Positions 31,247-31,285 of a DNA stretch of 64,000 nucleotides are shown here, piece by piece. The translations under genes and the position numbers were made by a program. How positions within the stretch are numbered: the first letter of the stretch is position 1; each line of letters starts with the position of its first letter. Source of the DNA: an uncultured Candidatus Saccharibacteria bacterium (GTDB taxonomy: Bacteria; Patescibacteriota; Minisyncoccia; Portnoybacterales; UBA2143); NCBI GenBank assembly GCA_964413015.1, contig CAYPQZ010000006.1, forward strand, positions 74,415 through 138,414, read 5' to 3'. The notes under the pieces were generated by a model. That model had not been told where the DNA came from. It was given only the letters and a program-made list of their open reading frames with translations, and did not search any database.

Positions 31247-31285
31247 TTTCTACGAATTACGAATTTATTACGAATATACGAATTT
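31247..31285 (-). promoter_or_regulatory. 39-bp ATTCGTA-heptad array immediately 5' of groEL (identical copy 5' of gap)
   Basis: tttctacgaattacgaatttattacgaatatacgaattt is identical at 55607..55645. The minus strand reads ATTCGTA four times, ending 5 bp before the ATG. Confidence 0.6.

Follow-up and report, generated by a model that had tools for sequence, protein, structure and literature searches.

The groEL and gap genes of an uncultured Candidatus Saccharibacteria bacterium are each preceded by the same 39-nt sequence (TTTCTACGAATTACGAATTTATTACGAATATACGAATTT), which constitutes the start-proximal arm of a palindrome of 76-119 nt with a degenerate stop-proximal arm. Here, we analysed the 64,000-nt stretch that contains both copies (positions 74,415 to 138,414 of contig CAYPQZ010000006.1, assembly GCA_964413015.1; the window in the following) together with related loci from other genomes and metagenomes. 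The explanation that we favour, with a probability of about 60%, is a mobile palindrome resembling miniature inverted-repeat transposable elements (MITEs) and the intervening sequences (IVSs) of rRNA, of which the host has probably co-opted the start-proximal arm as an expression signal. Its first part, i.e. that the 39-mer is one arm of a dispersed and lineage-specifically inserted palindromic element, is very likely; the co-option taken by itself is put forward more tentatively, at slightly less than even odds. Almost nothing is known about how members of the Candidate Phyla Radiation (CPR) start transcription and translation and about what shapes their compact genomes, and here a conserved, easily recognised 33-nt module stands directly before many highly expressed genes of Patescibacteria.

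Palindromic units upstream of groEL and gap

The 39-mer occurs twice in the window, at 31247-31285 and 55606-55644 (plus-strand coordinates), and no match is expected by chance, even allowing 3 mismatches. groEL and gap both lie on the minus strand, and each exact copy reads AA-ATTCGTA-T-ATTCGTA-ATAA-ATTCGTA-ATTCGTA-GAAA on the coding strand, i.e. a sense arm of four exact ATTCGTA heptads with 2 shared nucleotides upstream and GAAA downstream, as the initial annotation had described. The heptad module proper, from the first to the last heptad, covers 31251-31283 of the minus strand in copy 1 (score 28/28 in the module scan, spacers 1/4/0) and 55610-55642 in copy 2 (minus strand, likewise 28/28); no heptad cluster other than these two was found in the 64 kb. 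The ATG of groEL (31241) follows after 5 nt (31242-31246) and that of gap (55602) after 3 nt (55603-55605), which corrects the 5-6 nt given initially. The heptads follow each other at 8, 11 and 7 nt from start to start, so that the proposed spacing of one helical turn does not hold throughout. Independent JGI and NCBI assemblies carry the 39-mer at both loci and at least four independent assemblies contain it; it is therefore real and no assembly artefact. Two Logan short-read contigs terminate within the 39-mer, because genuine repeats break short-read assemblies. The repeat can also mislead annotation, e.g. of the GroES/GroEL operon structure.

Beyond each 39-mer we found an inverted, degenerate module, so that the unit at each locus is palindromic and reaches from stop to start codon. 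At groEL (Cpn60, PF00118; 29601-31241, minus strand), the partner arm lies on the plus strand at 31282-31314 and reads ATTTGTA-T-ATTAGCA-ATTC-ATTTGCA-TTTTGTA (21/28, spacers 1/4/0). Two of its nucleotides are shared with the sense arm, and its other end lies 3 nt from the stop codon of groES (Cpn10; 31318-31593, minus strand, stop at 31318, alternative TTG start at 31629), and the 76-nt groES-groEL spacer (31242-31317, minus strand) consists of one palindromic unit with flanks of 3 nt and 9 nt. A 909-aa GroEL-like protein (P0122), called in an ENA contig and scoring very high against the GroEL of the window, may be a read-through or fusion call across a groES-groEL spacer. At gap (GAPDH, PF00044 and PF02800; 54622-55602, minus strand), the element is contained in the 119-nt spacer (55603-55721, minus strand) that follows the glutaredoxin gene (PF00462; 55722-55982, minus strand), and here two degenerate inverted arms were detected on the plus strand. 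The first (55646-55680, 20/28) is homologous to the groEL partner arm with 24/31 identity; the second (55686-55718, 21/28) lies 3 nt from the glutaredoxin stop codon and is predicted to base-pair with the sense arm in the folded RNA. The degenerate copies noted earlier upstream of gap are thus present, but they are inverted antisense arms, and groEL has one as well.

In shuffled window sequence, a module score of at least 21 arose about once per 64 kb (both strands). The similarity between the two loci continues for about 31 nt upstream of the 39-mer, with 24/31 identity and a 7-nt indel, so that the sense arms are identical at 39/39 positions while the homologous partner arms match at only 24/31 (P = 0.002); each window unit combines one intact with one degenerate arm. 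Compared with shuffled sequences, both spacers are predicted to fold stably as RNA (groES-groEL, dG -15.6, z -2.8; glutaredoxin-gap, dG -27.8, z -3.4). A search of the window against Rfam 15 at the gathering score returned only three tRNAs and nothing at the element.

Dispersed copies in Patescibacteria, in 23S rRNA and around nuclease-fold genes

A three-heptad pattern was scanned over species-representative genomes and a tighter pattern over metagenome contigs, followed by a score-based scan of the fetched loci. Cyanobacterial tandem heptad repeats made up much of the species-representative scan; they have no relation to the non-tandem module and were set aside. The family is widespread in Patescibacteria, and the same non-tandem architecture was found in metagenome-assembled genomes (MAGs) labelled Patescibacteria, Parcubacteria, Paceibacterota, Moranbacteria/Moraniibacteriota and Saccharibacteria, and in a few labelled otherwise. 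At least 120 metagenome loci and at least 141 distinct contexts matched the tighter pattern, with the consensus ATTCGTA-N-ATTCGTA-N3-4-ATTCGTA-ATTCGTA-R, in which heptad 4 and the purine after it (G or A) are strongly conserved though outside the search pattern. Upstream of heptad 1 no conserved sequence was found among the metagenome contexts. The first spacer measures 1 nt in 82% of the arms (T in 70% of those), and the second consists of 3-4 nt of any sequence.

The score-based scan yielded 239 arms with at least 22/28 in 775 kb. Among arms not picked by the search pattern, each heptad position is about 90% conserved, with the exception of position 4 (about 65%), and this conservation is equal across all four heptads, in start-facing and stop-facing arms alike; the recognition unit is therefore ATTnGTA, four times. 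Coding sequence is strongly depleted of arms, since a long open frame spans 17% of them vs 73% of random windows. Arms occur in pairs, of which 64 are back-to-back, with heptad 1 central and heptad 4 outward, and 2 are face-to-face (both weak). In 13 pairs the arms overlap by 2 nt (TACGA-AT-TCGTA); otherwise the loop between them measures up to 60 nt, and units with a gene of the GxxExxY family inside have loops of about 400 nt. Twenty-nine pairs have the order stop-arm-arm-start between co-directional genes, with both arms equally well conserved, 2 lie between two starts and 1 between two ends. The 3 nt past heptad 4 are identical in both arms of 16/63 pairs (3 expected), and the only repeat at the unit boundaries is a palindromic TA inside the last heptad. 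One Patescibacteria MAG (locus L051) carries six arms within 8 kb, mostly with the variant ATTTGTA in both arms of a unit, which shows that the element has genome-specific subfamilies.

Neither blastn against plasmids and phages, which gave no match, nor the viral scan, which yielded only tandem repeats of period 10, lends support to a phage or plasmid origin, and we dropped this candidate. Tandem guide (TIGR) arrays, known from CPR and phages, are long and have 9-nt dual spacers, box C/D motifs and an adjacent Tas gene (PMC12045711); they were discarded as well, the module having spacers of 1 and 3-4 nt and dispersed units. With the search terms used, we found no publication containing 14-15-mers of the module or describing such repeats, MITEs or promoter motifs in CPR, and a Porphyromonas gingivalis paper rich in ATTCGTA matches proved to contain unrelated oligonucleotides. 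The nearest known kinds are IVSs, MITEs and repetitive extragenic palindromes (REPs) with their REPIN doublets.

The GAPDH and GroEL sequences nearest to those of the window came from Parcubacteria, Portnoybacteria and other Patescibacteria. The NCBI record LQBG01000056.1 is named 'Firmicutes bacterium ML8_F2', a name that looks wrong given its Patescibacteria-like GAPDH and GroEL. The gene order trxB-like, grx, gap, rpiB, rpe, tkt is common to four syntenic relatives (GAPDH 74-80% identical), whose glutaredoxin-gap spacer is 6-18 nt long and contains an AAGGAG Shine-Dalgarno sequence in two of them, and two relatives with 91-92% GroEL identity have a groES-groEL spacer of 15 nt. No arm was found in 153 kb of close relatives, both orthologous sites included. 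The short empty spacers and the missing arms show that both window copies are lineage-specific insertions, and empty orthologous sites, i.e. the presence/absence polymorphism expected of MITEs, were seen for both. The nucleotides left on either side of the glutaredoxin-gap unit (aa ... aaattt) are similar to the short A-rich spacer found in one relative (aaaaat), which fits insertion into a very short spacer. Two further relatives carry unrelated inserts between groES and groEL, and this spacer looks like a hotspot for small insertions. Among the loci inspected, it holds a 79-nt palindrome of CCAAAT/ATTTGG repeats in L269 (9922-10000) and a 202-nt GC-rich segment with several inverted repeats in L272 (1366-1567).

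A complete unit was also found within a 23S rRNA gene (locus L135). According to a covariance-model alignment, it replaces the apical loop of a helix at positions ~1206-1226 of the large-subunit model, and the native GAAUUC stem is kept on both sides. This copy folds as a near-perfect hairpin (dG -61.7, z -13). By rRNA numbering, its position is the classical helix-45 IVS site of 23S rRNA; like an IVS it extends the stem at the tip of a helix, whereas the window copies do not lie in rRNA. An 8-nt repeat around this unit, GGGAATTC, was considered as a target duplication and turned out to be the native self-complementary rRNA helix. The element thereby links rRNA intervening sequences with dispersed intergenic repeats. 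In a survey of CPR rRNA genes, many short non-intron insertions were found at known IVS sites and regarded as IVSs cleaved by RNase III (PMC11270868).

Coding relatives of the element were sought as arm pairs with longer loops. At several independent loci two outward arms tightly enclose a single open reading frame (ORF) of ~390 nt, e.g. at L224, where the ORF (612-998) lies between arms at 569-601 and 999-1031, both scoring 28/28; the same tight arrangement was seen at L229, L133 and L160 (two genes). These ORFs encode GxxExxY proteins (TIGR04256, E 1e-18 to 1e-35; PF13366, PDDEXK_3). As a less biased check, the loci of two homologues were chosen by protein similarity only: in L273, from a Staskawiczbacteria MAG, both arms overlap the ends of the ORF, and in L280 perfect arms are present on one side only. 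In sum, outward arms are found on both sides of 6/8 GxxExxY genes and on one side of the other two (L280 and L211). The G..E..Y motif and a D...E-x-K motif are invariant in the family, and the predicted structure has a PD-(D/E)XK fold (pLDDT 89, a confident model) that matches Cas4, lambda-exonuclease-like enzymes, tRNA-splicing endonuclease and the resolvase Hjc with TM-scores of only 0.4-0.5. GxxExxY/PF13366 is a large family with no known role and many horizontal transfers (PMC3424549); its members now gain a concrete genomic context and hence a testable function. No autonomous DDE transposase was seen in the long-loop arm pairs, and a DDE-transposase parent element was rejected for want of such a gene between the arms.

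Two of these loci hold further features. In L229, three tandem 60-nt units, each headed by a heptad arm, follow the arm-flanked GxxExxY gene and precede a type II secretion F-like gene (2646-2830); in L273, ftsE and ftsX separate the arm-flanked GxxExxY gene from a GIY-YIG nuclease gene (region 4177-4405).

A heptad-binding protein is plausible. The heptads would be recognised by a protein that binds the element or moves it, and the GxxExxY nuclease is the likeliest candidate. A more far-reaching version, in which the arms are recognition and cleavage sites of GxxExxY proteins, is less likely than not. It would amount to a compact new class of mobile elements, a ~130-aa nuclease between two four-heptad arms, whose ORF-less derivatives seed Patescibacteria genomes and the helix-45 site with hairpins that serve as start signals (promoter or processed short leader) of highly expressed genes such as groEL, gap and ribosomal-protein genes.

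Candidate expression signals and alternative explanations

Thirty-four of the perfect arms face a start codon, mostly at 3-12 nt, another 18 are directed at the stop of a convergently read gene (1-7 nt away), and 16 at neither. Among high-scoring arms, a recognisable partner was found for 72% of the stop-facing vs 53% of the start-facing ones; solo intact arms therefore face starts in 28 cases and stops in 9 (P = 0.003). The Pfam families behind start-facing arms include L10 (three times), L16, L6 and L24 (twice each), L4, pyruvate kinase, TIM, GAPDH, MreB, YidC and others, and gap, tpiA, pyk, groES and clpB are among the genes downstream of arms. Ribosomal-protein genes, counted by our own reading of 86 N-terminal sequences, make up ~19 of ~80 real downstream genes vs ~7% expected (P ~2e-6). 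At locus L139, three units lie in a ribosomal-protein cluster immediately before rplP, rplX and rplF, which lack any other visible start signal; wherever a Shine-Dalgarno sequence does occur, it is located downstream of the module (loci L074 and L238). The initial annotation had proposed a genome-wide search for arrays at other highly expressed genes. Ribosomal, glycolytic and chaperone genes were indeed enriched downstream, but arms also occur in other contexts: copies unrelated to gene starts, which that annotation had named as refuting its idea, were found at stop codons, in a 23S rRNA helix and flanking GxxExxY genes. Its suggestion of a promoter, enhancer or regulator site holds insofar as the module is non-random, widely conserved, start-biased when solo and placed before highly expressed genes; it does not hold in the sense of a fixed regulatory site.

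According to the explanation that we favour, the short ORF-less units, including both window units, would be MITE-like derivatives of a GxxExxY-carrying element. Folding of the arms into a long stem may make the element tolerable in operons and in rRNA: the folded unit would leave stop and start codon ~10-15 nt apart at the base of the stem, as in the ancestral spacer, and at the tip of an rRNA helix the pairing of the arms would merely extend the helix. The stem may be cut by RNase III, as are the IVSs of rRNA. One protein reading each ATTnGTA unit would account for the equal conservation of the four heptads, with the enclosed nuclease as the obvious candidate. The arm adjoining the ATG would have been kept perfect and co-opted as the start signal of groEL and gap. 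We consider such a co-option because the sense arms agree at 39/39 positions whereas their partners differ at 7/31, because solo arms are biased towards starts, and because units precede essential, highly expressed genes that show no other start signal.

As for the form of this signal, the likeliest would be an internal promoter with its hexamer at the junction of heptads 1 and 2, which reads TAnATT (-10-like) in the 82% of arms with a 1-nt spacer and TATATT in the window; failing that, the arm may provide a new leader that lacks a Shine-Dalgarno sequence. If TATATT served as a -10 element without a -35 element, the leader would be ~22 nt long. Cleavage at the base of the stem might instead leave a very short leader, possibly translatable in an organism poor in Shine-Dalgarno sequences. 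A Shine-Dalgarno sequence (GGAGG-like, 5-10 nt before the start) is absent at groEL and gap, as annotated initially, yet this is ordinary here, where only 6/68 window genes have one. A TAnnnT hexamer ends 5-9 nt before the start in 14/68 window genes, several of them with a TTGACA-like -35 sequence (e.g. the genes at 807, 3583, 17345 and 39319), and together with the rarity of Shine-Dalgarno sequences this suggests leaderless or near-leaderless mRNAs in the organism. At groEL and gap themselves a leaderless promoter was rejected, as no TAnnnT lies 5-9 nt before either ATG.

Several observations weigh against the combination of mobile palindrome and co-opted arm. On the side of mobility, the flanks of the empty sites cannot be aligned base for base; no target-site duplications beyond chance were found across the family with symmetric or asymmetric boundaries; and the window contains no GxxExxY gene. 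On the side of a promoter, a sigma-70 consensus scan of the module found no -35/-10 pair 16-18 nt apart, the TA/ATT positions at the junction are no more conserved than the rest of the arm, the equal conservation of all heptads disfavours use as -35 and -10 elements, and no arm precedes a tRNA or rRNA gene among the loci examined, which speaks against a classical promoter. As to the hairpin, the inner spacers of paired arms are unrelated (the same in 3/64 pairs; identity 0.23 vs 0.29 for random ones); the stem is therefore interrupted, and pairing alone cannot explain the conservation of the heptads. Finally, insertion into very short spacers could by itself account for the close spacing to start and stop codons, and the 39/39 identity could stem from recent insertion or gene conversion and not from selection.

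Two specific promoter types were tried and discarded. A sigma-70 promoter placed manually (TTCGTA-N16-17-TAATTC) or an extracytoplasmic-function (ECF)-like CGTA was weak and left the four equally conserved heptads unexplained, and a promoter of stable-RNA genes did not agree with the lack of arms upstream of tRNA and rRNA genes.

Three further explanations are each improbable. The first two are on a par. One of them is a purely RNA-level element, i.e. an IVS-like stem in a polycistronic transcript that serves as a cleavage site of RNase III, as a stabiliser or as a bridge for coupling, thereby separating or balancing the groES/groEL and grx/gap messages, with no promoter and with heptads conserved by ancestry only. 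The units do reach from stop to start, show pair-specific complementarity at the base of the stem, fold with significant stability (z -2.8 to -13) and include one at the helix-45 IVS site. IVSs of 23S rRNA are known substrates of RNase III (PMC11270868). An RNA that functions through its stem is nevertheless difficult to reconcile with the roughly half of intact start-facing arms that have no recognisable partner, with the degenerate partner arms in the window and with non-complementary inner spacers. Substitutions preserving G-U pairs are not enriched in the 5' arm, and the heptads are conserved in sequence without covarying. The unrelated inner spacers and the lack of excess G-U-preserving changes in 5' arms also led us to rule out a continuous RNA hairpin under selection.

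Selfish insertion without any host function has the same low probability. Here, the identity of the two 39-mers would result from two recent insertions or from gene conversion, and the proximity to starts would be a by-product of short spacers. This agrees with the empty sites of relatives at both window loci, with distances to stops (1-7 nt) that are as tight as those to starts, with the unrelated inserts of relatives between groES and groEL and with the other palindromic repeat families that occupy other spacers of the window. It does not predict the asymmetric divergence of the window arms (0/39 vs 7/31, P = 0.002), the 28:9 start bias of solo arms or the persistence of the element in essential ribosomal-protein clusters before rplP, rplX and rplF.

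Marginally less probable still is a host cis-regulatory module and no mobile element; here a conserved Patescibacteria factor, either an alternative sigma factor or a heptad binder of the ribbon-helix-helix type, would recognise the four heptads as a promoter or operator and govern a regulon of highly expressed genes, with sites turning over between lineages. In its favour are the conservation of the heptads in several Patescibacteria classes, the enrichment of highly expressed genes behind arms, the start preference of solo arms and the place of the module upstream of any Shine-Dalgarno sequence; the equal conservation of the heptads would suit a multimeric binder. The same equal conservation in stop-facing arms, the unit within a 23S rRNA helix and the GxxExxY genes enclosed by arms are difficult to accommodate, as are the 153 kb of close relatives in which the module is missing, at both orthologous sites too, the lack of a -35/-10 pair and the lack of arms upstream of tRNA and rRNA genes.

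A heat-shock operator in place of the HrcA-binding CIRCE element, a CtsR-like heptad operator or an assembly artefact can be regarded as refuted for practical purposes: despite groEL, groES and clpB among the downstream genes, the element lies inside the operon and away from its promoter, the same module precedes gap and ribosomal-protein genes, its sequence resembles neither CIRCE nor the CtsR box GGTCAAA, and at least four independent assemblies contain the 39-mer. CIRCE (TTAGCACTC-N9-GAGTGCTAA) has no match in the 64-kb window with up to 3 mismatches, and the 39-mer is not its substitute, as had been supposed, because CIRCE is expected before groES and this copy is located between groES and groEL.

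The mobile palindrome with a possibly co-opted arm shares features with several known systems. Like the IVSs of 23S rRNA (helices 25 and 45; 23S_rRNA_IVP family), it is a short insertion with inverted repeats that form a long stem, sometimes with a small internal ORF, its distribution is sporadic and looks horizontally acquired, and helix 45, a known IVS site, carries one unit in a CPR 23S rRNA gene. It differs in that most copies lie in spacers of protein genes, in its arms of four conserved heptads and in its ORF, a GxxExxY PD-(D/E)XK protein, where the IVS ORF encodes a four-helix-bundle protein. With MITEs and the Correia repeats of Neisseria (CREE), which may supply outward expression signals and be processed as RNA hairpins, it has in common small non-coding palindromic units in many intergenic copies near gene starts, and it may likewise provide outward expression signals and be processed as an RNA hairpin. 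Terminal inverted repeats around a short non-coding core, as in MITEs, were found in the 64 back-to-back pairs with their loops of 0-60 nt. In contrast to MITEs, the element has no detectable target-site duplication; it has no sequence similarity to Correia repeats, its putative parent carries a PD-(D/E)XK gene in place of a DDE transposase, and its promoter activity is only predicted.

REPs and their composite forms (BIME, REPIN) are likewise extragenic inverted doublets with ~35 nt per arm, often between co-directional genes and without target duplication. The outer end GTAG, carried by the REPs of Escherichia coli, is present in ~60% of the element arms. A single arm of the element, however, consists of direct heptads without an internal palindrome, and the associated gene is GxxExxY and not a Y1 (HUH) transposase, although no search aimed at such REP-associated transposases (RAYT) was made. 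Heptad-array operators such as those of CtsR (direct repeats of a heptad, the CtsR box) and of the omega repressor, which binds direct and inverted WATCACW arrays with one protein unit per repeat, resemble the element in that one protein unit may bind each 7-bp repeat in direct and inverted arrays. The heptad sequence of the element is different, its spacing is irregular (8/11/7), and copies are found at stops, in rRNA and around a nuclease gene.

Other palindromic repeats in the window

The palindrome TTTAAGGAC(W)GTCCTTAAA has 36 strand-matches in the window at up to 3 mismatches (1.0 expected), corresponding to ~20 sites, e.g. 1614-1677, 29517-29582, 32837-32903, 33541-33604, 39231-39249, 45459-45522, 47658-47721 and 61438-61501. 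The sites inspected are intergenic and often paired 45-47 nt apart. One pair lies just past the groEL stop codon and is followed by a T-run, so that these palindromes look like the usual terminators of this genome.

A second palindromic family with arms GTAGAGAAATTTTGAA ... TTCAAAATTCTTCTAC has 12 matches (3 expected), with units at 31707-31775, 31788-31856, 42733-42852, 48026-48154 and 54490-54617. One unit fills the 137-nt gap-rpiB spacer from stop to start, which measures -4 to 12 nt in three relatives and 237 nt in a fourth, and another ends immediately before tRNA-Leu. Units of this family also build an 81-bp tandem repeat upstream of groES (31698-31871; 2.1 copies, 97% identical), each copy of which contains the palindrome CTGGGTTGACCCAG and a -35-like hexamer, TTGACC.

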